From IMG/VR virus record IMGVR_UViG_3300017963_000200, positions 74,639 through 138,638 of that record: 64,000 nt of DNA; one strand, written 5' to 3'. The notes beneath the pieces were generated by a model. It was not told where the DNA came from. It worked only from the letters and a program-made list of their open reading frames with translations, and did not search any database. This DNA comes from a virus. The position numbers were made by a program, and so were the translations under genes. Of the stretch, positions 5,862-59,860 are shown piece after piece. The first letter of the stretch is position 1; each line of letters opens with the position of its first letter.

Positions 5862-6779
5862 ATGTCGTTCTGGAAAACAGCAAGTATCTCCGTCCTCGGC
5901 GTCCACGCGGATCACGGCTGGAATAAGGTCGCGACCGAAAAGTTCGCCTCGTTCTATATGGACGGCGGCGAGATTGACATCGAAGCCGCGCTCGACACCG
6001 TTGCCGACGCCTACCGGATATCTCGCGATCCAGATGATTATCTCCTGATTCCAACGCGGGCCAACTCGACGGATCGCCCGAACGAGAACATGGACGGTTG
6101 GCGCAGGGGAGAGCTGCTCCGGTTCGATCCTCGCATCGGACGCCGGGTCTATCAGACCTATCTCCTCAAGCCGCATTTCGTGAACCATAACGCCTCCAAC
6201 TTCGCCCTGTCTCGGGGAGTCATCCTCGACGCGCACTACAACGACGTCAATCCGGCCAACGACATGGTCAAGGAAGCGGTCTTCGAGGCGACCGGTGAGA
6301 TTCCCGATCGCGATGAGTTCGTCGAGACCTTGATCGCGATGGATACCACCAAGGATCCTCGCCTGGCGGAAGCGTACAAGAACGGTTCCGTCGACAAGTT
6401 CTCGATGGGTTGCGACGTGGAGAGCACCGAGTGCTCTGTCTGCGGCAAGACCGCGATGACCACCTTCCAGTTCTGCGATCACGTCCGCGCCAAGCTCTCG
6501 AAGCGTGCCTATCCCCTCGACGGTGGTGGCACGCGACGAGCTTTCGAGTGGTGCAACGGTACGATCTTCGCGGAGGAATCCGCCGTGGATGATCCTGCCG
6601 ACAAGGATGCCATCGTCCAGGAGGGTCTCTTGCAAGCGGTTGCGAGCGGTGCGCGCGTGTTGACGGCTTCCGAAGTCCGTCAGATCACGGCGTTCGTCGC
6701 GAAGCATCCGCGCGACATTCCGGAGCCCCTCGCTGCCTTGATCACATCGGCCCTCCAGAGGGCGTCAGGAGTGAACTGA
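5862..6779 (+). CDS. Hypothetical head-module protein (305 aa) with a C-x2-C ... C-x-H cluster.
   Basis: Long ORF between the head morphogenesis and scaffold genes. CSVCGKT...FCDHV suggests metal binding. No protease motif recognised. Confidence 0.5.
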   Translation: MSFWKTASISVLGVHADHGWNKVATEKFASFYMDGGEIDIEAALDTVADAYRISRDPDDYLLIPTRANSTDRPNENMDGWRRGELLRFDPRIGRRVYQTYLLKPHFVNHNASNFALSRGVILDAHYNDVNPANDMVKEAVFEATGEIPDRDEFVETLIAMDTTKDPRLAEAYKNGSVDKFSMGCDVESTECSVCGKTAMTTFQFCDHVRAKLSKRAYPLDGGGTRRAFEWCNGTIFAEESAVDDPADKDAIVQEGLLQAVASGARVLTASEVRQITAFVAKHPRDIPEPLAALITSALQRASGVN

Positions 6780-34233: not shown

Positions 34234-35852
34234 TGGCCGGTCGTTCCAACGCGAATCCGAACTCGTCGCCCTCCCTGCGTGGGAGAGCGCGCCACAATGC
34301 CTTCTACAGCTCTCTTCATCGAGTTCGGGTGACCGATCTGCACATCGAACGGGGAACCGTCGAGGTGACACCCCTCAGCGGCGGCACTCCGTATGAGGTT
34401 CTGATGCCGTTGGTGGGGCTGTCGATTCCTCCGCCGCAGACTTCCGAAGACAACAACTTCGCCCGGTCCTCCTGGGGAGTCTACTACCCCCAGGTGGATG
34501 ACATCCTCGTCGTGGGCTTCGACACGCTCGGTTTTCCGATGGCGCTTGGTTTCAGTGCCGTCGATTTCAATGTGATGAAACGCCGCGATGATGCTTTGGA
34601 TGAGCGTGGGGGCATCGGTTGGGCCGATGCTTCCGGCAAGCGGTTGCAACCGGGTGATGTTTCGTTCCGGTCGGCGCGCAACTCCAGCATCTACCTGGGA
34701 GATCGTGCCCGACTCGGGAGCGGCCCCCATTCGATCACGTTGGACAAACCCAACGGAGAGACCGTCATCCAGTCGGACATCGTCCATACTCGTTACGGGG
34801 CTGCCGGCGAAAAACGCGAGGGATCTGCGCGTCGGATCCTGGTGCCCGGAGTCGATACTCAGGAGAGCTATATCTACGGTATCTTCGGGACGGTTGCGCA
34901 GGAGCATACCAACTACGTGCGTCGCGGCGCGATCACGGCTCCTGGCGGACAGTTGCTGATGGTGCAGGAGTCGCGCGGAGAAATCATCGACGACCTGACC
35001 GGCCTCATCATGGTGCCAGCGACTTCGTATCCGGATCTCGCGGTCGCGCTCGCCGGCACCGGGGCTCGGAAGTTGACCACTGTGAAGGATGACGGCGCAG
35101 GCGTTGTCGACATGTATGTCGAGGTGGTAGATAACCTCGGCAATCGGGGGATTTCGGCCAAGACCGCTCTCGGCTTCCAGTGGTTCACTCCGGCAGCAAC
35201 CTGGACCATCTTGAACAACCTCGTCAACTGGACGACGAGCAGTACGTACAGTCTCACTGCGGGAGCCAGCATGTCGCTCACCGCAGGCACGGCGCTCACT
35301 GCCAGCGCAGGAGCCGCCTTGAGCTTGACGGCTGGTGCAGCGCTTACCGCGACTGCCGGAGCGACGATGGGGTTGACGGCGACCGGCGCGATGACGCTGA
35401 CTGCCCCTTCAATCACGTTGGCATCCGGTGTCCTCAACCTGGGGGCGAGCCCGGTGGTCGCGACCGCGAAGGACGCGCTCACTTTCAACGCGACCGACCT
35501 CACGATGGTGGCCACGGCGGCGATGGAGCTGGTGGCGACCGGCGAGATTGGTATCGACACGGCGGCGAAGCTCGTGCTGATCGCCGCCACCCAGATCGAC
35601 ATCGGAGCCCCGATTGTCAATCTCGGAGGTGCTGCGGCTACGGAATTCTTGGTGAAGGGAACGACTTTCATCACGGAACTGACCACTTTCATGACGGCGC
35701 TCAACACGTTCTTTGCCGCTTTCGCGGCTGATCCCGCGCTGAACGGTGTGCTTCCGGCCACGAAGAGTGCGCTTGGAGCGCTCATTCCGTTCGGCATCGA
35801 TTTCCAGGCGAGTCTGGCGACCGCGTTGTCGACAGTCTCGAAGACGGTGTAG
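34233..35852 (+). CDS. Baseplate central spike protein (539 aa), gpV / Mu gp45-like: N-terminal OB-fold-like region plus Ala/Thr/Gly-rich beta-helix repeats.
   Basis: Repeats LTAGASMSLTAGTALTASAGAALSLTAGAALTATAGATMGLTATGAMTLTAP. N-terminus RVRVTDLHIERGTVEVTPLSGGTPYEVLMP resembles the OB-fold of spike proteins. Confidence 0.55.
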   Translation: MAGRSNANPNSSPSLRGRARHNAFYSSLHRVRVTDLHIERGTVEVTPLSGGTPYEVLMPLVGLSIPPPQTSEDNNFARSSWGVYYPQVDDILVVGFDTLGFPMALGFSAVDFNVMKRRDDALDERGGIGWADASGKRLQPGDVSFRSARNSSIYLGDRARLGSGPHSITLDKPNGETVIQSDIVHTRYGAAGEKREGSARRILVPGVDTQESYIYGIFGTVAQEHTNYVRRGAITAPGGQLLMVQESRGEIIDDLTGLIMVPATSYPDLAVALAGTGARKLTTVKDDGAGVVDMYVEVVDNLGNRGISAKTALGFQWFTPAATWTILNNLVNWTTSSTYSLTAGASMSLTAGTALTASAGAALSLTAGAALTATAGATMGLTATGAMTLTAPSITLASGVLNLGASPVVATAKDALTFNATDLTMVATAAMELVATGEIGIDTAAKLVLIAATQIDIGAPIVNLGGAAATEFLVKGTTFITELTTFMTALNTFFAAFAADPALNGVLPATKSALGALIPFGIDFQASLATALSTVSKTV

Positions 35853-36797: not shown

Positions 36798-38228
36798 ATG
36801 ACCATTCGGAGAAGGACCGAGACGGAGTTCGCTGACCAGATTGCCGATGGGATCGCCCAGCGGGACGAGACCGTCGACACCAGGATCGGCTCGATTCGGG
36901 ACATCTTCATCACTCCGCCGTCCGTGGTGATGAAGGACATCAACGACAACATCGTCTACTTGTCGCAGCTCACGAGCTTGCAGAACGCGGAGCAGTTCGC
37001 TCCCGCCGATCTGGATGGCTTCGTCTTCAACGAGGGTCTCGTGCGGTGGGACGGTGCTCCGTCGCTCGCCATCGTCACCTTCGCGCGCATCCAGCCGCCG
37101 ACTGCCAACATTCCCATCCCGTCGAACTTCCCGTTGTCGACGGTGCAGGATCCTTCGACGGGTCAGATCACGGAGTTCAAGACCATCGAATCGGCGGTCA
37201 TGTACGGGCCTGCCACAGTGCCGGCCTCTGCGTACTACAATGCCGATACGGAGCGTTACGAGATCGATGTGGCTGTTGCCAGCGTGGTGAAAGGCGAATC
37301 GACTGCGGTGGGGGCCTACACGATCACGCAGTTCCGACGTCCCTTCCCGGATTTCGACTATGTGTACAACAAGGAGGCTACGACCAGCGGACGCGGCTTG
37401 GAGACGAATCTCGAACTCGCCCGGCGTTACCAGATGCAGGTAGAGGGCTCGCAGCTGGGGCCGGCTCGCGGTCTTCAGCGTTTCATTCTCGACAGTTTCA
37501 GCAGCTCCTTAGATGCCTACGTGGTTTACGGAGAGAACGAGAATCTGCTGCGGGAGATGTACGATGCCGGCGCGGTCGACTGCTGGATCCTCGGCGATTC
37601 GCCGGCAACCGTTTCCATGACGACCAACTATCCCGGTATCGAGACGTTGATCCCTTTGGAAAAGCAGCCGGTGGTGGAGGTCATCTCGGTTTCGGACTCG
37701 GGGACGACTTATATCGCGGGGACCGACTACGTAGTCGTGACCGGCGAGACCATCTACGCCTACAGCGACCGTGGCCAGGACGGCATCCGCTTCATTGCCG
37801 GGGGATCGGCCCCCACCTTGAACGCGGCGATCACCATCGTCTACTCGTACAACAGCCTCATCACCACGATGACGGCCTACTACCGTCAATCCGAGTACTA
37901 CGTGATGGGATCGGACGTCTTGTTCCGCTGGGCGCAGGCTCAGCAGCTGGAAATCGAGGCTAACTTGAAAGTATCTTCGGGCAATCCGGACTCGGTGCTC
38001 CAGCTGGTTCGCGAGCGTGTTTTGAACTACATCAACGGGCTCCTTCTGGGCAATAACGTCGAGGAGTTCGATATCGATGCGGAGGTTGCGCGCGTTTTCG
38101 GGGTCGATAACTGGACCTACACCACCCTCGCGGTCGAGGGTGGTACGGGAGTTGCGGACATCGAGATTCCACCGAACCAGTATGCGCGGCTGGAAGAGGC
38201 GAATCTCATCGTGAACTTGGTGTCGTAA
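36798..38228 (+). CDS. Baseplate J-like protein (476 aa).
   Basis: Size and position after the gp25-like gene. RBS GTGAGGTAAG. Confidence 0.5.
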   Translation: MTIRRRTETEFADQIADGIAQRDETVDTRIGSIRDIFITPPSVVMKDINDNIVYLSQLTSLQNAEQFAPADLDGFVFNEGLVRWDGAPSLAIVTFARIQPPTANIPIPSNFPLSTVQDPSTGQITEFKTIESAVMYGPATVPASAYYNADTERYEIDVAVASVVKGESTAVGAYTITQFRRPFPDFDYVYNKEATTSGRGLETNLELARRYQMQVEGSQLGPARGLQRFILDSFSSSLDAYVVYGENENLLREMYDAGAVDCWILGDSPATVSMTTNYPGIETLIPLEKQPVVEVISVSDSGTTYIAGTDYVVVTGETIYAYSDRGQDGIRFIAGGSAPTLNAAITIVYSYNSLITTMTAYYRQSEYYVMGSDVLFRWAQAQQLEIEANLKVSSGNPDSVLQLVRERVLNYINGLLLGNNVEEFDIDAEVARVFGVDNWTYTTLAVEGGTGVADIEIPPNQYARLEEANLIVNLVS

Positions 38229-39229
38229 TGCGATACGCGCTGTTCAAGTACGGGACCGGAGTGCTCTACGGGCCGAGCACCATGCTCGACGTGGTGGATC
38301 CGGAGCGGGGACCATCGCCGGGAGGTAACCCCTTCATTCTTAAGGGGACCGGTTTCGATCCGCGTCAATGGGATGACTTTTTCACCGGAGGTGTCCTCGA
38401 TCCGTCGAAGTGGGTCGACATCTCCTACGGCTCCGGATCCGTCAACACCGGACCGTTCCATCTGGAGATGGTGACGGGCTCGACCGCCAGCTCGGCTGCT
38501 GCAATCGAATCGGTTGCGTTGTGGGGTTCTACGCAAGGCGAGATCAGATTCAGTCTGCCCGTGATTCGAGAATACCCCGCTGACGTCGTCACGTTGATGG
38601 CGCTGTCACTCTGGGTGGGAGTCAACGATTACGCCGAGATGCGCATCGAAGTGGGGACGGAGCCGGGGACACTGGTGCTGCGTTGTGAGGTCTACCGGGG
38701 CGGCATCCTCGCCGACGAGATGATCAAGCCTCTCTCGTGGACGACTGGCACCTCGATGTTCAAGATCCTGCGCTGGAACAGTGACGTCTACTTCTACGCC
38801 AACGGAGAGCGCGTTTTCAAGAGCGTTCGGTTCACGAGCACTGCTGCGAAGTTCCGAATCTATACAACGAACGGCACGACTACCTACAACCTCCAAGGGG
38901 TCCGGGTCGAGTGGTTCTACTATCGGCCCTTCGCGGTCTTCCAGAATCAGCCGGTCCACGATACCATCGTTGTCTCGGATTTTCGGATGCGCGGTCTAGT
39001 GACGCCCAGCATGGACGACAAGCGCCAGCCGGCTGCCTATAAAGGTCTCGTGGATGTCCATGTCGTCGGCAATGGGGTATACACCAAGAGCAATGCCTAC
39101 GAGTACTACTATCTGGACGCGCTCAAGGTGATCAACAGCGCTCAGGCCGATACGAGGTTCTCGATCATCGATGACGCGCAGCTCTTCACGCCGCAAGGTG
39201 AGCAGAAGGGTCTCGGAGGAGGTAAGTGA
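38228..39229 (+). CDS. Baseplate/tail fiber-associated protein (333 aa).
   Basis: TAATG overlap. Position after the gpJ-like gene, analogous to gpI. Confidence 0.4.
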   Translation: MRYALFKYGTGVLYGPSTMLDVVDPERGPSPGGNPFILKGTGFDPRQWDDFFTGGVLDPSKWVDISYGSGSVNTGPFHLEMVTGSTASSAAAIESVALWGSTQGEIRFSLPVIREYPADVVTLMALSLWVGVNDYAEMRIEVGTEPGTLVLRCEVYRGGILADEMIKPLSWTTGTSMFKILRWNSDVYFYANGERVFKSVRFTSTAAKFRIYTTNGTTTYNLQGVRVEWFYYRPFAVFQNQPVHDTIVVSDFRMRGLVTPSMDDKRQPAAYKGLVDVHVVGNGVYTKSNAYEYYYLDALKVINSAQADTRFSIIDDAQLFTPQGEQKGLGGGK

Positions 39230-42200
39230 TGGCCCTCGAAGGTGTGAATCGCTATGCAGAGCTGATCAAGGCCATCCCGCCGGGGCCGTTCTACGATTCG
39301 CGCGGCATTGTCGTTCCGTACCGGCACGGAAACCACGAAGTGCGCCTTGAAACCGACAATCCGAATACCACTTATATCCTTTATATTGCAGGAGTTTATT
39401 CTGGTTCTGTCGTGTCGGACATCAACGGGAATGTTGTCTTCAGTCGCCATCTGGATCGTGGCGAGAACGAGATCCGACTCGTCAATTCCGAGACCAACAA
39501 TACCCTCATCAGCTACGTGACTGTGCGGGAGTACGCCCTGTGGCTCATAGCTTATGCGGAGACCTTCGAGAGCATCGACGACGACTGGAAGGAAGCCTAC
39601 GACGACATCTTCATCGAGACGGTCACCGTCAACGGCATCGAAGGTCGTTTTGGTCGCGACATCCAGACCTACAACAATATCGGGCAGTCCCTGGACGACT
39701 ATCGGTGGCTCCTTCACGAGCTGCGGTTGGCATACCGCAACTATGGGGGACGATTTCGGGGTTTCGAGACCGCTGTGGCCGAGTTTACCCAGATTCCGCA
39801 GTTCGGCTACTCGCGCCGGCTCTGGGGTCCGAACTGGACCTTGGATCAGTCGATGCTCATCAACGCCCGTTGGAAAGAACGGTCTCACGTCGTCTCTTAC
39901 AACGGAGCTGGAATTACCGGAGTCGCGCTTGACCGTGTCGAAGCAGATGTTCCTTCTGGAGTTGCGGCACGGGTCATCCAGTACGATGCCACGCTCGATT
40001 CCCTACGGTGGGGAACTTTCTTGACGCCCGGTCCTTACGTGCCGGCGAACGATGGATTGCTGTTCCTGCCAGGACCGCCCTCGACCGTACCGGCGTTCAT
40101 TCTGGGACTCGCGGGTCCTTTCGCTCTGGCAGCTGCGGAGACGACTCTCTATATCGATGACGGCACCGGGACCATTATTGTGCCGTTGGTCACGGGATGG
40201 CCGACACCGACAGCGGCACAGGTGGTCGGCGACATCAACACGGCGATGGGGTACGCCTTGGCGTCGGTCTACAACGGCAAAGTGCTCCTGGTGAATCCGG
40301 CCTCGCAGCCACTCCTGGAGATTGAACACGGCGCGAACAACGCCGCCGTCCGGATCTTCGGCGTCGAGCCGGGCAATCTGACATTCGCTCCGAACGTCAT
40401 GAACGGGGTCACCATTGTCAGTATTTCGGGATCGGTGGACGTCAACGCCAACTCCGAGATCGCCTACCGATATGATGGGTCCGTGACGCCGCCGACCAGG
40501 GAGCTACGCTGGCGCTCGCCACTCGCGGCCTGGTCGCCGTGGGTCTCGATCAGCGGAGATGGCACCTACTCGCTCATCGATGGTTTCGGCTACACCTTGA
40601 AGGTCCATTGCTACGAAGATGACATGGACGTTCTGAGCGGTCCGTGGCCCGCCACAACGTCCGTTCTCTTCTCCGTGGGGTACGGCAAGGAGGCGAGGCA
40701 GATCGAGCAGACAGGGGGACTCTGGGTGTACGTGGATCGCACCCAGCTGCCGGCCATCAACACTTTCGACTTTGTTGACGTCTTCGATGATGCTTCGACC
40801 CCGGGCGTGGCCGAGCTTCCTGATAACTGGTGGCTTGGGCTGCCGCTGCCAACGACTTCTACAGTCATTCTGGAATCCAGGGTCGTGACCGACAAGATCG
40901 ATCTCTATGATCCTTCACCGGCTTTTCGGGTGCATCTCCAAGATTCTGGTGCGCGGGTTCACGAGCTGTTTTCGAGGGTTCTTCAGTACCCGATGCCCCG
41001 ACCGGGTCCGAGGGGTCAGAACTATCCGCAGCAGAGTCCGGGCCTCTTCTACGACTACGAGGGCTTCAAGGCGAAGTTCTCCGGCTGGGTGTCCAGCACC
41101 ACGGTAGGGCCAACCACAGCCACGCTGAGCTTCTCTTTCGACAACGGGGCTACCTGGGTGTCCAGCGCGCCTTTCCCGGTCGTACAGGATACTGGGGGCT
41201 TCTGGTACGAAGATTTCACCTACATCGAGTTCGAGACCATCATCCCCGCCGGTCTCACTGACAACGGGGTCTTGGTGGCCGTCACCATCGATGACCCCGT
41301 GGGCATCGATGTGATGTTGGATAGCTTCCGTGTGGACGTCGAATACATCACCTCTCGGGTTCTGACGAGCAACACCGTCGTCAGGACGCGTCATCGGCAG
41401 TACTTCGGCGAGCTGGCGTGGACGTGGTCCGTAGATCCGCTCTCCCTCCTGGAGAAGGAGTATATCGGACTGCCCCACAAGCGCCCCGACAAGACAGTGC
41501 CGATCTCCGGCGTCACGGTCACTGACATCTCGATGGACACCGATCCGGGGAATGGCACCGTCGACTACGAGTACAACAGTCTCGGGGACATCCACCGGCT
41601 TCGTTGGAACGCTCCGAACGCTGCGTGGGGTCCGGGGCTCGGCTGGGTCTCGATCCTGAGTGCGGGAGCTTACGTGCTGCCGGCGAGCGACGGATCCTCG
41701 ATGACGACCTTGGTGGACTACGCGTTGCTGCCCGTGCTGGACGGCACTCCTCCGGGAGCCACGATTACCCGGAGCGTGACCATCACCGATACCACCATCC
41801 GGCAGGGACACGTCCGGAGGATCTCTCCGGCTCATTCGTCCATCGATATCTTCGATGTTACCGAATATAATTCGGATAATGTGCCGATCAATCTCAAGGG
41901 AGCCGTTACAGAAGGTGATTTTTCCTCCTGTACCCTCACAAATCTCGATATCCATGCGTCGAGCCCCTTCCGGTACTCGTACCTCCTCCCGAACCTGCTT
42001 CCCGTGGAGGACGAGCCGCTGACGTTCTCGGTGGCCGCTCCCTACGTGGCTCCCCTTCTCTATGATTCGGACCAGGATCAAGAATATGCCATGTTGTTCG
42101 AGGATGGGATTCTTGTTCCGAACGATCAGTGGTGGTTCAATTCCGCATCCGAAGTTCAGGTGGCTACTGCTTACTACAACTCTGGTGCCACTTACACCAT

Positions 42201-42819
42201 CAGCTACAATCCGATCTGCGTGATTGAGACGCCGTTGTTGGATCTCGGCGCTCTCACCTACCAGGACTACGTCTGGTTCGCTGACTACATGCTCTGGGAT
42301 CGGATGGAGCACAACGTCATCGGACGCATCGTGACCGTGCCGCTCTTCTTCAATCCGGACATCGGTCGCACCACGCTGGAGTACCGCTCCTCAATGGACA
42401 TGGCGGTCTCCAAGCTCTACATCGAGGACGCAGACGGACGCAGGGAGATCTCGACGGCCAACTGGAGGTTCATCGACCCGACCACGGTCGAGATGGACGC
42501 TTCCCAGTTCGTCGGAGGCGCGGTCTATTACCTGGAGCACGAGGAAATCCGGATGTATCGGCAGAGCGCCTTGACGATCACTTTCGAACACCGCTCCGGC
42601 GTAGATGCGCCGTCGTGCCTGGCAGCCGGCTGGAACACGATCCAGCGCAACGAGAACGTCGACGTGAACCAGAGTCCGGCAGGACACCTGATCCATCAGC
42701 TGCGCCTGTCGGTGAGCAACATCCGCGATCTGAGCGACTTCAAGATTCGGTCCTTGGTGCTCAAGGGCCTTCACATGTTCGGGAGCAATCCGGACATACC
42801 GGGGTTGACCAATGTATAG
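39229..42819 (+). CDS. Large tail fiber or baseplate structural protein (1197 aa).
   Basis: ATG 39229 overlaps the upstream stop (TGATG). RBS GGAGGAGGTAAG. Beta-rich. Confidence 0.45.
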   Translation: MALEGVNRYAELIKAIPPGPFYDSRGIVVPYRHGNHEVRLETDNPNTTYILYIAGVYSGSVVSDINGNVVFSRHLDRGENEIRLVNSETNNTLISYVTVREYALWLIAYAETFESIDDDWKEAYDDIFIETVTVNGIEGRFGRDIQTYNNIGQSLDDYRWLLHELRLAYRNYGGRFRGFETAVAEFTQIPQFGYSRRLWGPNWTLDQSMLINARWKERSHVVSYNGAGITGVALDRVEADVPSGVAARVIQYDATLDSLRWGTFLTPGPYVPANDGLLFLPGPPSTVPAFILGLAGPFALAAAETTLYIDDGTGTIIVPLVTGWPTPTAAQVVGDINTAMGYALASVYNGKVLLVNPASQPLLEIEHGANNAAVRIFGVEPGNLTFAPNVMNGVTIVSISGSVDVNANSEIAYRYDGSVTPPTRELRWRSPLAAWSPWVSISGDGTYSLIDGFGYTLKVHCYEDDMDVLSGPWPATTSVLFSVGYGKEARQIEQTGGLWVYVDRTQLPAINTFDFVDVFDDASTPGVAELPDNWWLGLPLPTTSTVILESRVVTDKIDLYDPSPAFRVHLQDSGARVHELFSRVLQYPMPRPGPRGQNYPQQSPGLFYDYEGFKAKFSGWVSSTTVGPTTATLSFSFDNGATWVSSAPFPVVQDTGGFWYEDFTYIEFETIIPAGLTDNGVLVAVTIDDPVGIDVMLDSFRVDVEYITSRVLTSNTVVRTRHRQYFGELAWTWSVDPLSLLEKEYIGLPHKRPDKTVPISGVTVTDISMDTDPGNGTVDYEYNSLGDIHRLRWNAPNAAWGPGLGWVSILSAGAYVLPASDGSSMTTLVDYALLPVLDGTPPGATITRSVTITDTTIRQGHVRRISPAHSSIDIFDVTEYNSDNVPINLKGAVTEGDFSSCTLTNLDIHASSPFRYSYLLPNLLPVEDEPLTFSVAAPYVAPLLYDSDQDQEYAMLFEDGILVPNDQWWFNSASEVQVATAYYNSGATYTISYNPICVIETPLLDLGALTYQDYVWFADYMLWDRMEHNVIGRIVTVPLFFNPDIGRTTLEYRSSMDMAVSKLYIEDADGRREISTANWRFIDPTTVEMDASQFVGGAVYYLEHEEIRMYRQSALTITFEHRSGVDAPSCLAAGWNTIQRNENVDVNQSPAGHLIHQLRLSVSNIRDLSDFKIRSLVLKGLHMFGSNPDIPGLTNV

Positions 42820-43087
42820 GATTACGATTGAGGTGATTTTGGTTATGTTAGCTTTCATCATCTTTTCGTCCGGCTGTCACGATGGATGTGAACCGGAAGA
42901 GATGAAGTGTGAAGGCTCCAGGGTCATGATCTGCAACGCCGAAACCGATTGGGAGGTCCACGACGACTGTGCCGACGTGGAGGACTTCGGCCAGGATCTG
43001 GAATGGGTGTGCTGCGAAGATCCGACTGACGGAATCCCGGCGTGCCTCCCGATCGAAGCCTGCGAAGAACTGGACGGAGGTGTGTGA
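42812..43087 (+). CDS. Small Cys-rich acidic putative lipoprotein (91 aa, 8 Cys after the signal peptide).
   Basis: Hydrophobic N-terminus ending ...IFSSGC (lipobox-like). Mature part very acidic with CHDGCEPEEMKCEG...WVCCEDPTDGIPAC. Confidence 0.4.
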   Translation: MYRITIEVILVMLAFIIFSSGCHDGCEPEEMKCEGSRVMICNAETDWEVHDDCADVEDFGQDLEWVCCEDPTDGIPACLPIEACEELDGGV

Positions 43088-43692
43088 TGCCGCAAGTATC
43101 TGGGGATCAGGTCCGGCTCTACTGGAAGTACATGCAGAAGCAGTACCGCTTCAAGGTGGTCGACAAAGACGACGCCGGGGAGATGCAGCTCATCGGATGG
43201 GCGCTCGACACGATGGGCATCCAGGACCAGGACTACTTTCTGCACAACTACACGACCACTGTCGGCAGCAAGATCTACATCCCCTTCGAGGTCGGCGTCG
43301 GCACCCAGAAGCAGCTCGTTGGGCAGATCATGACCTGCGCCCACGAATGCCAGCACATCGTGCAGTCGCGCCGTGATCCAATGTACGAGATCAAGTACCT
43401 CACCAGTGATGCTGCCCGGACGCTCTACGAGGTGGATGCCTACCAGGCGAACATGGAGATCCACTGGTGGTGGTATCAGAAGACTTTGAATCCGACGATT
43501 CTGGTAAACACTTTGAAGGGTTACAGCATCGATGCGCCGAACCGGCGCGTTGCCAAGAAGCGCTTCATCAGCGCGAACAAGATGATCGAGTACGGTGGCG
43601 TCACTACTGGGACGGCCATCAAGACGATCCGGTGGTGCAACCGGAACCTGAAGCCGGCCCGGTCGCGGACGGTTCGCGTGATAAAAGTGTAG
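43087..43692 (+). CDS. HExxH-motif protein (201 aa), possible zinc metallopeptidase-like domain.
   Basis: ATG 43087 (TGATG overlap). The motif CAHECQHIV contains H-E-x-x-H. No further similarity recognised. Confidence 0.35.
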   Translation: MPQVSGDQVRLYWKYMQKQYRFKVVDKDDAGEMQLIGWALDTMGIQDQDYFLHNYTTTVGSKIYIPFEVGVGTQKQLVGQIMTCAHECQHIVQSRRDPMYEIKYLTSDAARTLYEVDAYQANMEIHWWWYQKTLNPTILVNTLKGYSIDAPNRRVAKKRFISANKMIEYGGVTTGTAIKTIRWCNRNLKPARSRTVRVIKV

Positions 43693-43695
43693 GAA

Positions 43696-44568
43696 ATGAT
43701 AATTAGAGATAAAGAACGAGAAGTTCGAACCTGCACTAAGTGTATGGAAGTAAAGTCTTTTTCTGAGTTTTCTTACTCAAGAACTGGTTTTGCTAATCGA
43801 AAGAGTATGTGTAAGAATTGCATGTATGAACATCGTCGCGAATACATGAAGAATTACAAGAAAAAGAAACTCAAGACTTTTGTTGAGGTTACATCTGGAG
43901 TTAAAACATGTACGCATTGCAAAGTAGAGAAACCGGTAACTGAATTTAGAAAACTTGTTACAGTTAAGGACGGTCGTCAGAGTTGGTGTATCCGATGTAC
44001 TCAGAAGCAGAGTCATGAGCGGGATAAACGGTTGAACTTCCCCCCTCGCAAGGAAGGGGTAAAAAAGTGTTCTCGATGTGAACAAGTCAAGTCTGTACGA
44101 GAATTTAGTCCGCATAAATACCATAGGGATGGTTTAGCTTCTTGCTGTAAAAAATGTGATGGACAACGTAGTGTATGTCGCAACAGACGTGATCCGCAGT
44201 CGAGATTGGCTTCAACTTTACGGAGTCGTTTGTTGGTAGCGTTGCAGTATCGTGATGGGACGGGCTATAAAGGAGGATCTGCCGTAGCAGATTTAGGGTG
44301 TACAATTCCAGAATTGAAGAAATATTTGGAAGATCAGTTTTATCCGCATCCCCATACTGGGGAATTGATGAACTGGGATAATTGGTCTAACTCGGGATGG
44401 CAGATCGATCATATAAAGCCTCTTTCTTCTTTTGATTTATTGGATCGGGCACAATTTTTGGAGGCATCTCGGTATACAAATCTACGACCTTTATGGTTGG
44501 TAGATCATATTAGGAAAACAAAGCGGGAGCAGAAAGCTCTGAAACTTTCTGAGGAGAAAAAATCATGA
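43696..44568 (+). CDS. HNH homing endonuclease (290 aa) with three N-terminal Cys4 zinc-ribbon repeats, encoded in an AT-rich island.
   Basis: Three repeats of C-x2-C-x3-K-S/P-x3-EF-x8-12-C-x2-C. The C-terminus GWQIDHIKP...NLRPLWLVDHIRK is a canonical HNH motif. GC content is about 40% against about 60% in the flanks. Confidence 0.7.
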   Translation: MIIRDKEREVRTCTKCMEVKSFSEFSYSRTGFANRKSMCKNCMYEHRREYMKNYKKKKLKTFVEVTSGVKTCTHCKVEKPVTEFRKLVTVKDGRQSWCIRCTQKQSHERDKRLNFPPRKEGVKKCSRCEQVKSVREFSPHKYHRDGLASCCKKCDGQRSVCRNRRDPQSRLASTLRSRLLVALQYRDGTGYKGGSAVADLGCTIPELKKYLEDQFYPHPHTGELMNWDNWSNSGWQIDHIKPLSSFDLLDRAQFLEASRYTNLRPLWLVDHIRKTKREQKALKLSEEKKS

Positions 44569-47500
44569 GGGGCAGCATTTATCCGGATGGGGTCGTTGTT
44601 GACCACACGGCGCTCCGACGCACGGAAACCAGCAAGTCCGAGGAGATCCTTCGGAATCGCCTGGATTGGACATCTCGGGGGATGTACACGGGCGGCGAAG
44701 TCACGGTGAACACCAGCGGTGCTCCGCCCTATCTCCACATCGATGTCGCGCAGCTGTCCGGATTTGCCCCGAACGGTGAATTTTTGCAGACTGCCAGTGA
44801 CTACTACGACATCGCGCTCGATGACGAGACGAGCGGTGTCGTGAACCTCGTCTGCGCGGTCTACACCGAGAACGAGATCCACAGGCAGCCGCACGAGAGC
44901 GACGGAGAGACCTATCCGACCGAGGCCGAGATGGCGTGGCGCATCCGGGTCTACTCGGAGGCCAATTACGCGGCGCTCCCGGCGACCGACGACAACCTGG
45001 CCAACGATGCCAAGAATCGGATGCTCGTCGTCAGCAAAGTCACGGCCAATGGTCCGTCGACCTCCTTGACGGCGAGCAGCATCCAGAGCCCGACGTCCTA
45101 CGACAGCATCCTCTACGCGGAGCCCCGCGAGTTCACGTCGATTCCTGGGATTGCGATTCTCGGCGTCTCGTCGGACACGCCGGTCGGTGACGGCACTTTG
45201 GACTACACCTACAGTGTGGGTCCGACCTACGACTTCACCTGGACCACAACCAACGGTGTCGGCGTGACGTTGTCACCGACCGTGGACGGCATTTACAACC
45301 TCACGGACGGTGCAGGAGCCTACCTGCGAGTTCAGATCGTCATCTCGATGCTGCCGACGAGCGGCACCTTCCCGATCTCCGAGACGGTCACGATTCATAA
45401 CCTCTACTACCAGGACATCCCGCGCCTGACTGCCGAGGACGAGCTGCACCGGCACTTCATCGGGACCGGTGTCGTGACTCCCACCAACCCGCACGGGACA
45501 TCGCTGAACGATATCCTGGAGCAGGAGTTCACTCTCCTCGAAGAGCACCAGGATATCGAACACTGCAACGGCATCTGGAAGGGTTCCAGTCCCAACGTCT
45601 TCGCCACGGCGGTCAACAATGCCTCCCCAGCCGACCAGCTGCTCATCACAGCTCCGGTGGCAGGCGATCTCTACTACGTCAACGGCAAGAAGCTCAGCTC
45701 CGTCGACGTGACCACCGTCGTCTTCTCCACTCCGGCGAACCAGACGGCCTATATGTACGAGATCTATGTTTCCGACGAGGAGACGGTCCAATACCTCCAG
45801 AAGATGTCCTATCCGGCGTCTCGGACGGTGACGGGGACTTGGATCATCGACGCGAGCCACGATTATCCGTTCGGCTCGGCCATTCTGGAGGTGCAGGTCA
45901 CCAACACGCCGTCGCTGCGGTACATCTTCAGGTGGGACAACGGGGATCAGGTCACGCTGCTGAGCACGAATCCGTCCCAGGTCATCAGGCTCTATGCCGA
46001 GGATGGAGAGCACTGGATCGATCTGTACGTGAACATGACGCCGGGCTCTGGCGACGAGTTCCTGCCCGGACTCGGTACTTTCACCGATTCAATCACCATC
46101 GCGGCCTCTCTGGATTTCGACCAGCACATCCAGATCGCGTCGACTCCGTACTGGTACGATGGTGCCTCCGCGACCTGGGTCATGGGCTACCCTCCGACGA
46201 CGTGGCCGGGCCGTGTGACTGTCGATAAGCGTCCGTGGGGCACCTTGTGCTTCGAGAATATGGCCGACACGGCCCTGGAGCAGATTGCCTGGGATCCCAA
46301 CAACGAGCTGGGGCGCTCCGGGGTTCTGCTGCGGCGTAACGGCTACAACAACGAGTTCCGGCTGGACTACGGAGGCAGCGGCCTCAACGCTGACATCAAC
46401 GGAGGATCCTACTACTGCCGGGGACGCCGCATCAGCATCGATTCGGTATCGAGCCTCGCGTTCTCCACCAACTCCACGTCGCTCGTCTGGGCCGACTACG
46501 AGGGGACGGTTCGAGTGCTGAACGTGAATGCTCTTTTCGCGGGGGATCTGACGGCGGCGATGCACTACATCCTCGGCTCGATGACCGATGTGCCGACCAA
46601 GAGCGCGATCTATCACGCCACCGACCTTCACGACGCTCCGGAGCGGGGCGTGATCCTCTGGTATGTCGAAACAGATGCCACCAACATCATCTACAACTGC
46701 GACTTCTCCCAGAATGTCAATCAGGTGCTCCACCCGTGGTCGGTCAGCTCGCGGAACGTCGGTTTCTATCCGGCGCAGGCAGCCTACGATTCGTTGTTCA
46801 CCGCCTTCGAGTACGCGAAGGTCTCCGGTCTCAAGGATCCGTACAGGGATGCGGCGGTCACCATCTACGTGACCGGGATGTGCGGCATCAACCGGGAGAT
46901 CACGCAGCCGCCCAATGTGAACGTCTGCGGCACGCGAGGCGCAGCCCTGACCCTCGCCAGGGTGGAAGTGGTCCACGTCGACATTACAGGAGCTTGGAAG
47001 CTCTCTTCCGGTTGCCAGATCTCCGGCCTCACCATCGACATGTACGCGAACAACGGGACCGTCTTCGCGCTGCACAACAACACCATCGTCGAGAAGTGCA
47101 ACTACACGGCGTTCGGTACGACCAATGACGCCATGTTCGCCCTCGACAACGGCGAGCGCACCATCGTGGGGGTCCGGATCCGTGACAACCTGATCGCCAC
47201 CTACAGCGGAATGTTCTTGAACGTCGCGCCCGTCCCGGACGGCTACATCGATTGGGAGATCATCGGCAACAATGTCGTGGTCGCCGCCAACTCGAACTAT
47301 CCCGTGATCAACCTCGACAGCGCATCGGCGATCCACATCAAGCGCAACAACATCGCGATCTTGAACGCCGGTTCGAACCCTACTCCCGGAATCTATGTCC
47401 AGACGAGCGGCACCTACCAGACGCGGGAGATCTTCATCGAGGACAACGTCATCAAAGCCGACTGCACGAGTCTCTCGAACACACCGACCTGCGTCTACTT

Positions 47501-49250
47501 CGAGAACGTGCAGTTGTCTACGATCAACGGCAACACCTTCGAGCCTCGGACGGTCCCCGGCACGACGCTCTTGACCGGGATCGCCACTCTCGGCGTCTCC
47601 AACATCGCCATCTGCGACAACAAGTTCAACGCCCTTGGCATCGGCGTCTACATCGCGGATTACTTCTATGATGTCGAGATCTTCAACAACAAGTTCTTGG
47701 CCTGTTACCACCGGGGCGTCAAGGTCGAGACCTTGAGCTATCCCGTCCTGAACAGCGTCTACGGCCTTCGGGTCGAAGAGAACGACATGAACATCTTCAT
47801 CAAAGGCGCGGTCGGCGGCAGCGGCTACGACGGCCAGTTGATGGGGGTCGAGATCGATCTGGGGACGCTGGATGTCGCGGATTCTGCGGTGACGGATATC
47901 TCCGTCTCGAACAACAACTTTTTCGGGTTCACCAACTCCACCGGTAACATCCGGGTCGTGCAGGCGCTGGTGAACTCCAACTCCAACACCATCCAGCGGA
48001 ACTTCAAGATCAACGGCAACCTGATGTCGGGAATGAACGCCCCCAACGGCAGCTTCCGGGGCGTGTACGTCTTGGCTTCCACTGCGGGTCAAGCAGGCTA
48101 CCCCATCGAGAACATTTCCGTCAGCCACAACCATATCTATGCGGAAGTCGATACAACTTCGTTCCGGATCGCGGGTCTTGACCTCGCGCACAAGATGACG
48201 GCTTCGGTCATCCAAGGGAACCAGATCCGCCTCATCAGCTCGAACGTGAACAGCAACGGCACCGGTATCTACATCGGCCAGGGCACGAACTCCGCTTCTT
48301 CCAGCGGGGTCGTGGTCGAAGGGAACACGATCACGACCCTTCGCGCCGGCATCTACGCCAATGTCACTTCCTCCAGCGTGATCGGCAACCGGGTCTTCTG
48401 CTTCGGGGAGGGGATCTTCCTGGAGGGCATAGCTCCTCCCAACGAGTCCCATCTGCTCTGCGACGGCAACAATATCCGGGTGCTCGGGCACAACAGCAAC
48501 CCATTCACGAGCGTTGGGGGCGGAGGGGGCTCCCATTGCATCACCGTCAGGACGGAGATGCTGCGCTTCTCGATCACGAACAACATCTGTCATTTGGAAG
48601 GTGTCCTCAATGCTTATCTGCCGGGATCGAAGGGTCTCATCGATGGCAGCAGCTGCATCAAAGTTCGAGACGGCGCTCAGTACGTGATCGAGGGCAACCA
48701 CACCCGGATCGAAGCCGGGGACGTCGAGGGAACGGACGGCAGCGGAGGCACGCGGGCTCACCACATCTACGTCCGGGCCGGAGCTGGCCTTTCCTATCCG
48801 TTCTACGGGGTCACCATCGAGGGCAACCACATCGACAACTGGAGAGCCCTGGGAGTTGCCTCGGTGTGCTACGGAATCTACGTTATTCCGGGCTCTGGGT
48901 GGTCGCACGCTGCCGGAGATGCCGGTCGTGCGGCCATCATCGGCAATCACATCGTCTCCTCCACCTGGGAAGCGGCGACCCCGTTCAACAACGACGCGGT
49001 CAACGGCAATCCTCCGGGGACGACCATTCCACGCCCCTTCGAGATCTACATCCCCGATTTCGGAGGTGACAGCGGCATCTACTCCACCGATATCTTCCTG
49101 GGTGCCAACGCCATCATGTCGCCGGACGACCCGCTCCCAAGACCGCGTGTCTACATGTGGAATCTCCATCTGACCATCGGTACCTGTCAGTCCAACTTGA
49201 CCAACTGGGGCGAGCTGGTCGGCCCCCCCTTCGCGACTCACTTCTGGTAG
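44565..49250 (+). CDS. Tailspike / tail fiber protein (1561 aa) with an extensive right-handed parallel beta-helix (pectate-lyase-like repeats). Possible glycan depolymerase.
   Basis: Dozens of repeats of the type (I/V)xGNx(I/V)...N: IIGNNVVVAANSNYPVINLD, RNNIAILNAG, VIGNRVFCFG, IIGNHIVSS, plus Asn ladders. ATGA overlap with the HNH gene. The GAGGAG RBS lies inside the HNH 3' end. Confidence 0.6.
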   Translation: MRGSIYPDGVVVDHTALRRTETSKSEEILRNRLDWTSRGMYTGGEVTVNTSGAPPYLHIDVAQLSGFAPNGEFLQTASDYYDIALDDETSGVVNLVCAVYTENEIHRQPHESDGETYPTEAEMAWRIRVYSEANYAALPATDDNLANDAKNRMLVVSKVTANGPSTSLTASSIQSPTSYDSILYAEPREFTSIPGIAILGVSSDTPVGDGTLDYTYSVGPTYDFTWTTTNGVGVTLSPTVDGIYNLTDGAGAYLRVQIVISMLPTSGTFPISETVTIHNLYYQDIPRLTAEDELHRHFIGTGVVTPTNPHGTSLNDILEQEFTLLEEHQDIEHCNGIWKGSSPNVFATAVNNASPADQLLITAPVAGDLYYVNGKKLSSVDVTTVVFSTPANQTAYMYEIYVSDEETVQYLQKMSYPASRTVTGTWIIDASHDYPFGSAILEVQVTNTPSLRYIFRWDNGDQVTLLSTNPSQVIRLYAEDGEHWIDLYVNMTPGSGDEFLPGLGTFTDSITIAASLDFDQHIQIASTPYWYDGASATWVMGYPPTTWPGRVTVDKRPWGTLCFENMADTALEQIAWDPNNELGRSGVLLRRNGYNNEFRLDYGGSGLNADINGGSYYCRGRRISIDSVSSLAFSTNSTSLVWADYEGTVRVLNVNALFAGDLTAAMHYILGSMTDVPTKSAIYHATDLHDAPERGVILWYVETDATNIIYNCDFSQNVNQVLHPWSVSSRNVGFYPAQAAYDSLFTAFEYAKVSGLKDPYRDAAVTIYVTGMCGINREITQPPNVNVCGTRGAALTLARVEVVHVDITGAWKLSSGCQISGLTIDMYANNGTVFALHNNTIVEKCNYTAFGTTNDAMFALDNGERTIVGVRIRDNLIATYSGMFLNVAPVPDGYIDWEIIGNNVVVAANSNYPVINLDSASAIHIKRNNIAILNAGSNPTPGIYVQTSGTYQTREIFIEDNVIKADCTSLSNTPTCVYFENVQLSTINGNTFEPRTVPGTTLLTGIATLGVSNIAICDNKFNALGIGVYIADYFYDVEIFNNKFLACYHRGVKVETLSYPVLNSVYGLRVEENDMNIFIKGAVGGSGYDGQLMGVEIDLGTLDVADSAVTDISVSNNNFFGFTNSTGNIRVVQALVNSNSNTIQRNFKINGNLMSGMNAPNGSFRGVYVLASTAGQAGYPIENISVSHNHIYAEVDTTSFRIAGLDLAHKMTASVIQGNQIRLISSNVNSNGTGIYIGQGTNSASSSGVVVEGNTITTLRAGIYANVTSSSVIGNRVFCFGEGIFLEGIAPPNESHLLCDGNNIRVLGHNSNPFTSVGGGGGSHCITVRTEMLRFSITNNICHLEGVLNAYLPGSKGLIDGSSCIKVRDGAQYVIEGNHTRIEAGDVEGTDGSGGTRAHHIYVRAGAGLSYPFYGVTIEGNHIDNWRALGVASVCYGIYVIPGSGWSHAAGDAGRAAIIGNHIVSSTWEAATPFNNDAVNGNPPGTTIPRPFEIYIPDFGGDSGIYSTDIFLGANAIMSPDDPLPRPRVYMWNLHLTIGTCQSNLTNWGELVGPPFATHFW

Positions 49251-51118: not shown

Positions 51119-52690
51119 ATGAATGTCGTTCTCCTCATCGACGGGAACCCTCTGCTCTGGCGCGCGGCCTACGCCGGCTACGGAACCGGCGACAGCTCTC
51201 TGGCGAAAGGGGTCTTGAACTACTTCTACTCGATGATTCACAAGTTCCGACCGCAGGACCTCGTGGTGTGCTGGGACAAGGGAATGTCCTGGTGGCGCTC
51301 GCAGCTCTACCCCGATTACAAGGCTCACCGGATGGAGAAGAAACGGGAGAGCGACATCGATCTGGAGATGGTCCAGGAGCAAGCAGGCTACGCCAGGAGG
51401 TACTTCGAGGCCCTCGGGGTGCGTCAGGTCATCTTGCCTGGCGTCGAGGCTGACGACGTCCTCTCGTGGCTCTCAGAGCACTATCTGAAGCGCATCGAGC
51501 ACTTCCCGGATTGGAAGATCGTCATCGCTACCGGGGATCAAGACCTGTGGCAGCTCGTTCGGGAAGATGGGCGCATCCTCATCTGGGATCCTCAGAAGGA
51601 ACTTCTAGTAGATCATTCAAAGGTAGTGGAGGTCCTTGGTGTATCTCCGGAACGCATCCCCGATCTGAAGTCGATGATGGGGGATGCTTCGGACAATTTG
51701 CCGGGGGTGAAGGGGATCGGCCAAAAGATAGGCTCGAAGTTGCTCCGCGAGTACGAGACGTTGGGCAATATCATGAGCCTCGATGAGAACCTCATCAAGG
51801 AACTGAAGAAGCGCAAGACGACGGCGCGGATCCTGGATGCCGATGACGTTCTTGGGGAGACGTACCGTCTTGTGAAGTTGCCCGCTATCCGCGAAGCCGC
51901 GCATTGCCTTTCTTCACAGGACCTGAAGCTTCTTCGAGAGCAGCTCGGGCAACCGCTCGACCGGGATTCCTTCCGACTCCAGGTGATGGCGGAGCGCATC
52001 GGGAAGTCGTGTGCGAACATCGAGCCGTTGGTTCCCACGTCGGCTTCGGATCTGACGGTCATGGTGGATGAAATGGAAGTATATCTATCGAATCAGACCT
52101 GGACCGATCTTCGAGAGGTCGACTGGGCGATCCTCGGATGCAACCAGTGCGCTCTCCGGGCCGACACGGGCGAGAAGGGGCCGACTCTTCCCCAAGGTCA
52201 TCAAGGGGTCGACATCATGCTCGTGGGCCGTAACCCTGGCCAGCAGGAGCTGGAGAACGGTGTTCCGTTCTGGCCGGATGCGCCGGCAGGAGGTCGGCTC
52301 AATCGCTTCTTGGAGGTGGTTGGTCTGGAGCGACACGAGTGCTGGATCACCAACGCGTGCAAGTGCTACTCCCAGGCCAATCGTCCTCCGACATGGCCCG
52401 AGGTTTTGGCGTGCTCGCGGTATCTCCGGGCCGAGATTGACCTCGTCAAGCCCAAGCTTATCATCTGTTTCGGTAACGAGGCGATGAGTCTCGTCACTCC
52501 ATACCGGAGCCGGGTGACGAAGCACTGCGGCGAGATTCTGGACAAACCCCGCAGTGTGATCGGTGACATCGACGCGCTGGTGGCAATCAGCGTACATCCG
52601 TCGGCGGCGTGTCGGGGTGGTCAGGGAGAATCGAACATGCAGTACGCCGAGACTAACGTCAAGGCCCTCCTGGACAAGGTGACCCAATGA
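51119..52690 (+). CDS. Fusion protein: 5'-3' exonuclease (FEN/Pol I N-terminal family, PIN + H3TH) joined to a C-terminal family-4 uracil-DNA-glycosylase-like domain with Fe-S cysteines.
   Basis: N-terminal LLIDGNPLLWRAAYA, YKAHR, EADDVLS and ATGDQDLWQLV match the FEN consensus. H3TH GDASDNLPGVKGIGQKIGSKLL. C-terminal GCNQCALR, GRNPGQQELENGVPFWPDAPAGGRLNRFL (like the GEAPG...PF.G.AG..L motif A of UDG family 4), NACKC, and VHPSAA (motif B, HPS). Confidence 0.75.
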   Translation: MNVVLLIDGNPLLWRAAYAGYGTGDSSLAKGVLNYFYSMIHKFRPQDLVVCWDKGMSWWRSQLYPDYKAHRMEKKRESDIDLEMVQEQAGYARRYFEALGVRQVILPGVEADDVLSWLSEHYLKRIEHFPDWKIVIATGDQDLWQLVREDGRILIWDPQKELLVDHSKVVEVLGVSPERIPDLKSMMGDASDNLPGVKGIGQKIGSKLLREYETLGNIMSLDENLIKELKKRKTTARILDADDVLGETYRLVKLPAIREAAHCLSSQDLKLLREQLGQPLDRDSFRLQVMAERIGKSCANIEPLVPTSASDLTVMVDEMEVYLSNQTWTDLREVDWAILGCNQCALRADTGEKGPTLPQGHQGVDIMLVGRNPGQQELENGVPFWPDAPAGGRLNRFLEVVGLERHECWITNACKCYSQANRPPTWPEVLACSRYLRAEIDLVKPKLIICFGNEAMSLVTPYRSRVTKHCGEILDKPRSVIGDIDALVAISVHPSAACRGGQGESNMQYAETNVKALLDKVTQ

Positions 52691-59775: not shown

Positions 59776-59817
59776 AACTTTTCTCGGCACTGAACATAAA
59801 TTAAGTGGTGTTTTTTC

Positions 59818-59846
59818 TTGACATGGGTTTTCGTGGCTGCTAGTTA
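59818..59846 (+). promoter_or_regulatory. Sigma-70-like promoter candidate TTGACA-N17-TAGTTA upstream of the primase gene.
   Basis: TTGACA at 59818-59823 and TAGTTA at 59841-59846, in an AT-rich 85-nt intergenic gap. A T6 run lies just upstream. Confidence 0.4.
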
Positions 59847-59860
59847 TACGGTCTGAGTAT

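Follow-up and report, generated by a model that had tools for sequence, protein, structure and literature searches.

A homing-type HNH endonuclease gene and a conserved lipoprotein–zincin gene pair ahead of the probable tailspike gene of a large uncultured phage

Three small genes lie between the baseplate genes and the probable tailspike gene in IMG/VR virus record IMGVR_UViG_3300017963_000200, and they encode a Cys-rich putative lipoprotein, a protein with an HExxH motif and a zinc-ribbon HNH endonuclease. An original prediction, made from the sequence alone, regarded them as a single AT-rich accessory island. The question raised by this locus is, hence, whether the three genes represent one acquisition or several unrelated ones. 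We analyzed the 64 kb stretch covering positions 74,639 to 138,638 of the record (the window; all coordinates below refer to it). The comparison with related contigs makes it highly probable that two unrelated things are present side by side, which are a homing-type insertion of the HNH gene and a resident pair of lipoprotein and zincin genes. Five open reading frames (ORFs) are arranged head to tail on the + strand over 39226-49250, as listed below with the lengths of their products in amino acids (aa) and of their gaps and overlaps in nucleotides (nt).

39226-42819, + strand: gene of a 1197 aa protein, from the ORF list
42812..43087, + strand: gene of a 91 aa acidic Cys-rich predicted lipoprotein, first of the conserved pair, overlapping the 1197 aa gene by 8 nt
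43087..43692, + strand: gene of a 201 aa stand-alone zincin (gluzincin-like HExxH...E), second of the pair, with its start overlapping the lipoprotein stop by 1 nt
43696..44568, + strand: gene of a 290 aa free-standing HNH endonuclease, identified by its ORF, its GC content and PHROG and tblastn matches, after a gap of 3 nt from the zincin gene
44565..49250, + strand: gene of a 1561 aa probable tailspike (beta-helix), with an ATGA overlap with the HNH stop, NosD matches and syntenic orthologues

Base composition and the insertion site of the HNH gene

A sliding profile of 300 nt indicated that a GC content of 0.39-0.45 was confined to about 43650-44550, compared with 0.585 for the window, and no other trough in the 64 kb was as deep or as long as this one at the HNH gene (z = -4.2, minimum 0.363). 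The HNH ORF has a GC content of 0.41 and a third-codon-position GC content (GC3) of 0.35, whereas all the other called + strand genes of the window have a GC3 of 0.66-0.86, and its codon-usage distance was the greatest of any gene in the window. The sharp drop to about 40% GC proposed for this gene was, therefore, confirmed, and the sliding-window GC and codon-usage check suggested with it indicated a non-uniform composition with the HNH gene as the outlier. However, the 91 aa gene (GC 0.54, GC3 0.66) and the 201 aa gene (GC 0.58, GC3 0.82) are native in composition, so that the AT-richness ascribed to the whole of 42812-44568 is a property of the HNH gene alone. Two lesser low-GC stretches were also present in the window at 5601-5950 (minimum 0.45) and at 59201-60100 (minimum 0.43), the latter covering the boundary between the DnaB-like helicase gene and the primase gene, and neither contained an HNH-like ORF.

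Comparison with relatives lacking the HNH gene, which the original prediction had recommended, defined the insertion site to within a few nt. Four related contigs (L001-L004) were found through relatives of the zincin at 81% and 77% identity, and their genes encode, in order, proteins of 476, 333, 1195, 91, 201 and 1564/1575 aa, without an HNH gene. With the more distant contig L025 included, the junction is spanned by five related contigs, none of which has the HNH gene and all of which retain the order of baseplate, 91 aa, ~200 aa and tailspike genes, with a zincin–tailspike spacer of 10-13 nt in L001-L004 and 18 nt in L025. When the flanks were anchored on the stop and start codons, the empty site in L001-L004 read ...AAGGTC TGA GGAGGA(T/C)ACG(ACG) ATG, and the occupied site in the window read ...AAAGTG TAG GAA ATG[HNH]...CTT TCTGAGGAG AAAAAATC ATGA. 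The two segments delimited by this comparison are as follows, where the ends of the insert are uncertain by a few nt owing to short similarity at both ends.

43693..44547, + strand: inserted segment of ~855 nt, from the junction comparison with L001-L004 and L025 and from the GC trough
44548..44556, + strand: TCTGAGGAG, the ancestral zincin stop codon and tailspike Shine-Dalgarno sequence, kept with 9/9 identity to the empty sites of L001-L004

The retained TCTGAGGAG is now translated as codons in the C-terminal tail of the HNH ORF. It places GAGGAG (44551-44556) in the 3' end of the HNH gene, 8 nt ahead of the tailspike ATG (44565), which the HNH stop codon overlaps as ATGA. Because this segment was kept by the insert, the ribosome-binding site of the tailspike gene is preserved. 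Thus, the HNH 3' end does supply this site, as predicted, and the site is the original ancestral one.

These findings bear directly on the possibility that all the three genes form one AT-rich accessory island, or moron, gained jointly at a hotspot beside the receptor-binding gene. The three genes are contiguous between the baseplate and tailspike genes, and the pair is cassette-like in that it occupies other genomic positions at deep evolutionary distances, as would be expected of such an island. Nevertheless, besides the AT-richness being limited to the HNH gene, the pair is found at the same position in six related contigs (L001-L004, L025 and L026), five of which reach the tailspike junction and lack the HNH gene. 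The GC3 of both pair genes is native, purifying selection acts on them, as detailed below, and they occur independently of the HNH gene. Furthermore, the tailspike gene is uniformly ~75% identical, like its neighbours, with no mosaic break in the available relatives, and nothing in these relatives points to the recombination hotspot proposed next to the receptor-binding gene. We consider a joint gain of the three genes extremely improbable on these grounds, and the description of them as one inserted cargo island cannot be maintained. As a side observation, the closest relative, L001, carries an extra 216 aa gene (L001:15428-16078) between its tailspike gene and the next conserved gene of 155 aa. 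This gene, for which no Pfam or PHROG match was found, occurs neither in the window nor in L002-L004 and represents a further indel adjoining the tailspike gene.

No inverted or direct repeats bracketing the insert were found beyond chance-level matches of 9-10 nt, no promoter or terminator signal for the insert rose above chance, and no HNH paralogue was present within the window. An origin as an insertion sequence or transposon was rejected, because there were no terminal repeats, no signal of a target-site duplication and no transposase domain. The HNH insertion is a single selfish gene in the short spacer ahead of the tailspike gene, which is an ordinary event.

Domains and expected behaviour of the HNH protein

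The protein encoded by the insert consists of an N-terminal zinc-ribbon part and a C-terminal catalytic part, for which the coordinates are as follows.

43732..44157, + strand: three zinc-ribbon units (residues 13-42, 72-101 and 125-154), a presumed DNA-binding module, from the Cys spacing and Stc1 matches
44398..44520, + strand: HNH catalytic core (residues 235-275), from family invariants, the AlphaFold2 model and weak fold matches

The pattern C-x2-C-x22-C-x2-C occurs three times (Cys 13/16/39/42, 72/75/98/101 and 125/128/151/154) with 12/12 Cys intact, confirming the three Cys4 repeats noticed earlier. Pfam Stc1 scored 23.8 bits against a cutoff of 24.8, and the top Foldseek match of the model was the Stc1 tandem zinc finger (E 0.044). 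In an alignment of 20 homologues, the conserved core of the family was the C-terminal part (~residues 170-280), which has D238, H239, N262 and P265 in every member; the last ligand, at position 271, is N in most homologues and H in the window protein. AlphaFold2 predicted a C-terminal domain of beta-beta-alpha topology with a pLDDT above 90, in which strand 235-239 ends in D238-H239, N262 precedes strand 263-267 and H271 lies in helix 268-289. Weak Foldseek matches were enriched in Cas9 HNH, colicin E7/E9 and pyocin S2. In addition, phrog_1035 ('endonuclease VII') matched the protein at 2.2e-23, other matching PHROGs were also labelled HNH or endonuclease, and tblastn identified phage genes annotated as HNH or endonuclease VII with 37-40% identity over the catalytic domain. 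From sequence and model, we accept the 290 aa protein as an HNH endonuclease of a divergent subfamily with an intact DH...N...H core.

A public gene call (274 aa, P0006) starts at Met17 (43744) and loses the first CxxC of the first zinc ribbon. The start at 43696, which lies 3 nt past the upstream stop and gives 290 aa, is more likely, because relatives share the same N-terminal ribbon.

Homologues of the HNH gene in other phage contigs are also wedged between late genes with gaps of 0-1 nt, and members of the family occur at unrelated positions in other phages. In Virus Rctr197k (197 kb), which is the nearest catalogued phage and has a portal protein 41% identical to that of the window, two different endonuclease genes were observed within ~4 kb of each other in the structural region (locus L021, KX853510.1 71045-75571). 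Gene 064 is LAGLIDADG/HNH-like, and gene 066 is a homologue of the window HNH protein. Large phages of this group appear commonly to carry multiple homing elements. Apart from the window's own sequence, no close relative of the HNH protein over its full length was found, and a single-protein scan of IMG/VR with it found nothing.

The sequence comparisons give good support to the interpretation of the gene as a free-standing endonuclease gene of the homing type, which is a known kind of element for which cleavage and homing would be expected. The presence and absence of the gene at a site defined at the nucleotide level, its foreign composition and its intact catalytic and zinc ligands all agree with the original prediction of such a gene beside the tailspike gene. 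Several results weigh against it. As for the protein, curated HNH families of Pfam (e.g. PF01844 and PF13395) gave nothing at an E below 1, searches of NCBIfam and of PDB sequences gave nothing above threshold, a Foldseek search of the whole model against PDB gave no significant match, and 7 of the 20 relatives touched PF01844 at an E of 0.004 or worse (best 0.0044). The family profile gave only a 15-residue local match in PDB, WQ(V/I)DHIKP, to the ZRANB3 HNH domain (E 2.4). The motif that had been called a textbook HNH is, therefore, present as DH(238-239)...N262...H271, but the word overstates a motif that curated profiles do not recognize. As for the gene, no donor lineage was found, and no co-conversion tract was visible in the sliding identity profile of the flanks, which are uniformly 75-79% identical in DNA to L001 and L002. 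The latter result can be attributed to the nearest HNH-less relatives being only ~78% identical in DNA. Expression of the HNH gene may also be low, because AGGAA is too near the ATG for a normal Shine-Dalgarno spacing.

We also considered whether the HNH gene might be a domesticated phage function, such as a terminase-associated packaging HNH, a nuclease that degrades host DNA or an anti-restriction factor of the Lar type. The ORF is uninterrupted and lies inside the late operon, an identical protein is present in three assemblies, and residues 10-112 match phrog_5558 ('Lar-like restriction alleviation protein') at 1.9e-17. That match is, however, restricted to the zinc-ribbon repeats. The gene is missing from 5/5 syntenic relatives spanning the junction and is, hence, dispensable, its GC3 of 0.35 has not been ameliorated, and its family resides at unrelated positions elsewhere, as described above. 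Domestication is, therefore, quite improbable. A packaging HNH in particular was rejected, given the absence from relatives and the distance from the terminase and portal genes, neither of which is adjacent.

The insertion of ~855 nt landed in the 10-18 nt zincin–tailspike spacer of a large contractile-tailed phage. The HNH gene is read through within the late operon, without a promoter or terminator of its own, and its translation probably occurs by coupling, because its start lies 3 nt past the zincin stop. Given the ATGA overlap and the retained ancestral Shine-Dalgarno sequence, expression of the tailspike gene would not be disrupted. Whereas the insertion, its composition and the intact motifs are seen directly, cleavage and homing are inferred from the behaviour of seg and mob in T-even phages. 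The HNH enzyme would bind its target via the three zinc ribbons and a helical linker, and would cut or nick HNH-less relatives near the junction, where the putative homing target covers the 3' end of the zincin gene and the 5' end of the tailspike gene. Recombinational repair would then copy the HNH gene into these relatives in the course of a co-infection.

The closest known system is that of the free-standing phage homing endonuclease genes of the HNH class, with behaviour as described for seg and mob of T-even phages and for I-HmuI-type enzymes. The window gene resembles the free-standing phage HNH homing genes in being a single ORF in a spacer between conserved late genes that is present or absent among relatives, in its foreign base composition and lack of its own promoter, and in combining an HNH/His-Me core with separate DNA-binding modules. 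It differs from known ones in that its catalytic domain belongs to a divergent subfamily that is missed by the Pfam HNH models, in that it is without the flanking CxxC pairs seen in many HNH cores, in that the last position is occupied by N instead of H in most of its relatives, and in its three tandem N-terminal Stc1-like zinc ribbons. The same architecture of zinc ribbons and a C-terminal DH...N...N/H domain is found in the phrog_1035 'endonuclease VII' proteins, for which Azospirillum phage Cd gp26, Rhizobium phage 16-3 p100 and Virus Rctr197k_066 served as comparators. The Rctr197k homologue matched the window protein at an E of 2e-22, although the identity of these proteins to it is only 26-34%. 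'Endonuclease VII' is an annotation label here, and no Pfam Endonuclease_7 match was seen.

The lipoprotein–zincin pair

The 91 aa protein has a PROSITE-type lipobox, MLAFIIFSSGC, that was matched by regular expression with Cys22 as the lipobox Cys, and its signal peptide has R3 in the n-region and a mean hydropathy of 3.17 over residues 8-19. The mature protein of 70 aa contains 22 Asp/Glu, 2 Lys/Arg and 8 Cys beyond Cys22, in agreement with the earlier description of an 8-Cys acidic putative lipoprotein. Furthermore, 9/9 Cys are invariant in orthologues, and distant orthologues have the textbook lipoboxes LALCAC or VAVGAC. Thus, the sequence supports the assignment of the protein as a bacterial-type lipoprotein with predicted acylation. 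A match to phrog_14364, which is of unknown function, was obtained at 2.9e-6, and tblastn with the lipoprotein gave no match. The conserved C-terminal DGG was examined as a processing motif, but it is better explained by the zincin Shine-Dalgarno sequence embedded there, because it is encoded by GAC GGA GGT, which carries GGAGG.

In the 201 aa protein, the motif CAHECQH is present, as originally noticed, and there is neither a signal peptide nor a transmembrane segment. The codons of its putative zinc ligands are as follows.

43342..43356, + strand: HExxH codons (H86-E87-C-Q-H90), from alignments, with the motif in predicted helix 74-96
43429-43431, + strand: codon of the putative third ligand E115, in predicted helix 108-130

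At 50% identity, the family is made up of 850 representatives, each ~200 aa long. Across a diverse set of 138 members, H90, Y104 and E115 do not vary, H86, E87, Q93 and R111 are conserved in >90%, and the spacing of HExxH and a Glu 25 residues on is the gluzincin pattern. The AlphaFold2 model (pLDDT 94.6, pTM 0.91) places the conserved residues on two consecutive long helices. At the level of the predicted fold and of conservation, these data support a metallopeptidase-like zincin of the gluzincin type, and the earlier suggestion of a metalloprotease-like protein holds, with the zinc ligands conserved in the 138 sequences and the helices as expected. The zincin matched phrog_13834, of unknown function, at 1.8e-40 over 184 residues. 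Its model gave no significant match in BFVD, tblastn gave one distant megaphage match only, and a single-protein scan of IMG/VR found nothing. A more specific guess, that it is DUF4157-like, was partly borne out. In Pfam, the window zincin itself gave no match to DUF4157 and 12.2 bits with DUF6782, below the gathering cutoff of 27, but recurrent weak matches of individual members among the 138 (17/138 to DUF4157 and 38/138 to DUF6782) indicate a distant likeness of the family.

To define how far the two genes go together, we surveyed loci retrieved via the zincin (L001-L018) or via the lipoprotein (L022-L026); scanning of IMG/VR loci used alignments of 5 and 6 sequences, as the 138-sequence alignment was too diverse. 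Both proteins were encoded in every surveyed locus in which both gene positions lay inside the contig, which amounted to 16 independent contigs. The start and stop codons of the pair usually overlap, and pairing and coupling persist to about 35% identity. The exceptions to direct adjacency are L018, in which two genes, one of the Bro-N/ANT type, separate the pair members, and L024 and L025. The ORF between the pair genes is of 60 aa with a CxxC...CxxC zinc ribbon in L024 (L024:5327-5509) and of 66 aa with two hydrophobic holin-like segments in L025 (L025:5309-5509), both without a PHROG match. The dN/dS of the pair against L001 and L002 was 0.15-0.21 (0.15-0.19 for the lipoprotein), which indicates purifying selection; that of the baseplate and tailspike genes was 0.08-0.20.

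The pair was found in three contexts. It lies between the baseplate genes and the tailspike gene in the window, L001-L004, L025 and L026. It directly follows an MT-A70 methyltransferase gene in phage contigs of ~176-197 kb (L005, L023 and L024). It also lies between the HK97-type capsid gene and the gpS, tube and sheath genes in IMG/VR contigs and in contigs binned with metagenome-assembled genomes of Myxococcales, Polyangiaceae and 'Deltaproteobacteria'. The MT-A70 gene and the pair form a recurrent trio (L005:7044-8612, L023:2351-3887 and L024:4389-6139), and MT-A70 and N6_N4 methyltransferases are also encoded near the pair in L018. This neighbourhood may hint at a counter-defence setting. 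In L008-L016 (e.g. L008:2177-12336), which are binned contigs of the third context, the pair is inside a myovirus-like late operon with the order of a methyltransferase and XkdF protease fusion, HK97 capsid, three small ORFs, the pair, and gpS-like, TIG-domain and sheath-like genes. The bins suggest Myxococcota as hosts for the pair. From the sequence comparisons, the pair is an old, widespread, resident phage gene pair of unknown function and not foreign cargo; mobile and moron-like is a fair description of it on long time scales only, and it is fixed in the lineage of the window.

With regard to function, the best parallel is the Tpe-Tpi system. The C-terminal metallopeptidase of VgrG2b is delivered by a contractile machine and is active in the periplasm, and it is neutralized by PA0261, a disulfide-requiring envelope protein that is an outer-membrane lipoprotein in Enterobacteriaceae (PMC6899460). 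By this analogy, we tentatively suggest that the zincin may be a peptidase and the lipoprotein its envelope-located partner, namely an inhibitor, an immunity factor or a target protector. The lipoprotein would be exported and disulfide-bonded in the envelope, and the zincin would be a minimal gluzincin-type peptidase reaching the periplasm with the virion or at lysis. It would have to reach the envelope to meet its partner, because only the lipoprotein has a signal peptide for export. The pair nevertheless has no detectable sequence homology to Tpe-Tpi (VgrG2b C-terminal domain/PA0261), its gene order is reversed, and its zincin is not fused to a spike (PMC6899460).

A broader form of this proposal is that the two genes are an undescribed, widespread two-gene phage module, composed of a peptidase and a cognate envelope partner, that is linked evolutionarily to the DUF4157 zincins of contractile injection systems; this we regard as possible but doubtful. 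Such a module would be either an envelope-active peptidase delivered with the virion or at lysis, with the lipoprotein for self-protection, or a novel device for superinfection or anti-defence. DUF4157 domains sit in cargo proteins of extracellular contractile injection systems (eCIS), where they have no settled role and are not required for loading (PMC8213781, PMC8894135, bioRxiv 10.64898/2026.05.27.728243). The DUF4157/eCIS core (PF13699) and DUF6782 (PF20573) share with the window zincin an HExxH zincin core tied to machines derived from contractile tails. In contrast to eCIS cargo, the window zincin stands alone at ~200 aa, without a disordered N-terminal loading region or a C-terminal toxin (PMC8894135; bioRxiv 10.64898/2026.05.27.728243). 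It also differs from DUF4157 and DUF6782 proteins in that its family is always paired with a small lipoprotein.

The lipoprotein might instead act on its own as a superinfection-exclusion or receptor-masking factor, with the zincin as a separate cytoplasmic protease, e.g. an anti-defence, ArdC-like or ImmA/IrrE-like one. Llp of T5 and Cor of T1, phi80 and N15 are phage lipoproteins encoded beside receptor-binding genes, and the 91 aa protein resembles them as a small predicted exported lipoprotein encoded near a tailspike gene. However, no sequence similarity to them was found, and its 8-Cys acidic domain is different. Unlike Llp and Cor, the 91 aa protein is obligatorily paired with the zincin and often encoded far from receptor-binding genes, which are not adjacent in 2/3 contexts. 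Strict co-occurrence and translational coupling to ~35% identity argue for a joint function, and we rate separate roles of this kind as unlikely.

A lysis accessory module, consisting of a spanin-like outer-membrane lipoprotein and a peptidase attacking envelope links, was also weighed. It would be consistent with expression from the late operon, with the small size and the disulfide-forming Cys of the lipoprotein, with the holin-like ORF between the pair genes in L025, and with the report that the VgrG2b-type zincin appears to free lipoproteins from membranes (PMC6899460). On the other hand, Pfam and PHROG scans of the window revealed no holin or endolysin neighbour. Typical o-spanins are Pro-rich, and the lipoprotein, being acidic with 8 Cys beyond the lipobox Cys, is unlike them. 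The zincin has no transmembrane segment and, hence, is no i-spanin, which makes a spanin identity of the pair unlikely, and the lysis module as a whole is distinctly improbable.

Genomic setting and significance

The phage is uncultured and of ~188 kb, as the database places the window proteins on a contig of 188,555 nt; a megablast search with the 12 kb surrounding the site found no counterpart among 50,697 phage records. The window includes a portal gene (phrog_16240, 1.4e-71), a weak baseplate-hub match at 34233-35852 and, at 36798-38228, the gene of a 476 aa baseplate wedge protein of the gp6/J type (phrog_6, 1.5e-19), which supports a location of the locus at the distal end of a baseplate module and agrees with its earlier placement between the baseplate genes and the tailspike gene. 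The 1561 aa protein showed a weak NosD-type beta-helix match (TIGR04247 NosD-family, 5.8e-5), its homologue in L025 was also flagged as NosD, and its orthologues of 1564-1575 aa lie in synteny at 74-75% aa identity. From these matches, it is probably the tailspike.

Replication genes are located downstream in the window and encode an exonuclease, an SNF2 helicase, a DnaB-like helicase and a primase. Also in the window, a 523 aa protein (51119-52690) joins a 5'-3' exonuclease region (phrog_107, 3.5e-34) to a UDG-family domain, the latter taken from precomputed Pfam marks on the L001 and L002 orthologues, and is followed by a protein combining DUF3310 and TSCPD; both are unusual fusions.

The three-gene island of the original prediction, thus, reduces to a homing-type HNH insertion and a neighbouring conserved pair. 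The insertion represents a clean, nucleotide-resolved homing-type case in an uncultured phage and adds little conceptually, although its occupied and empty alleles are at hand for probing the target specificity of the HNH protein. The more interesting lead is the lipoprotein–zincin pair, which is tightly coupled and strongly conserved and has no known function. A zincin that stands alone and has an obligate partner might make it easier to learn what DUF4157-type zincins do.

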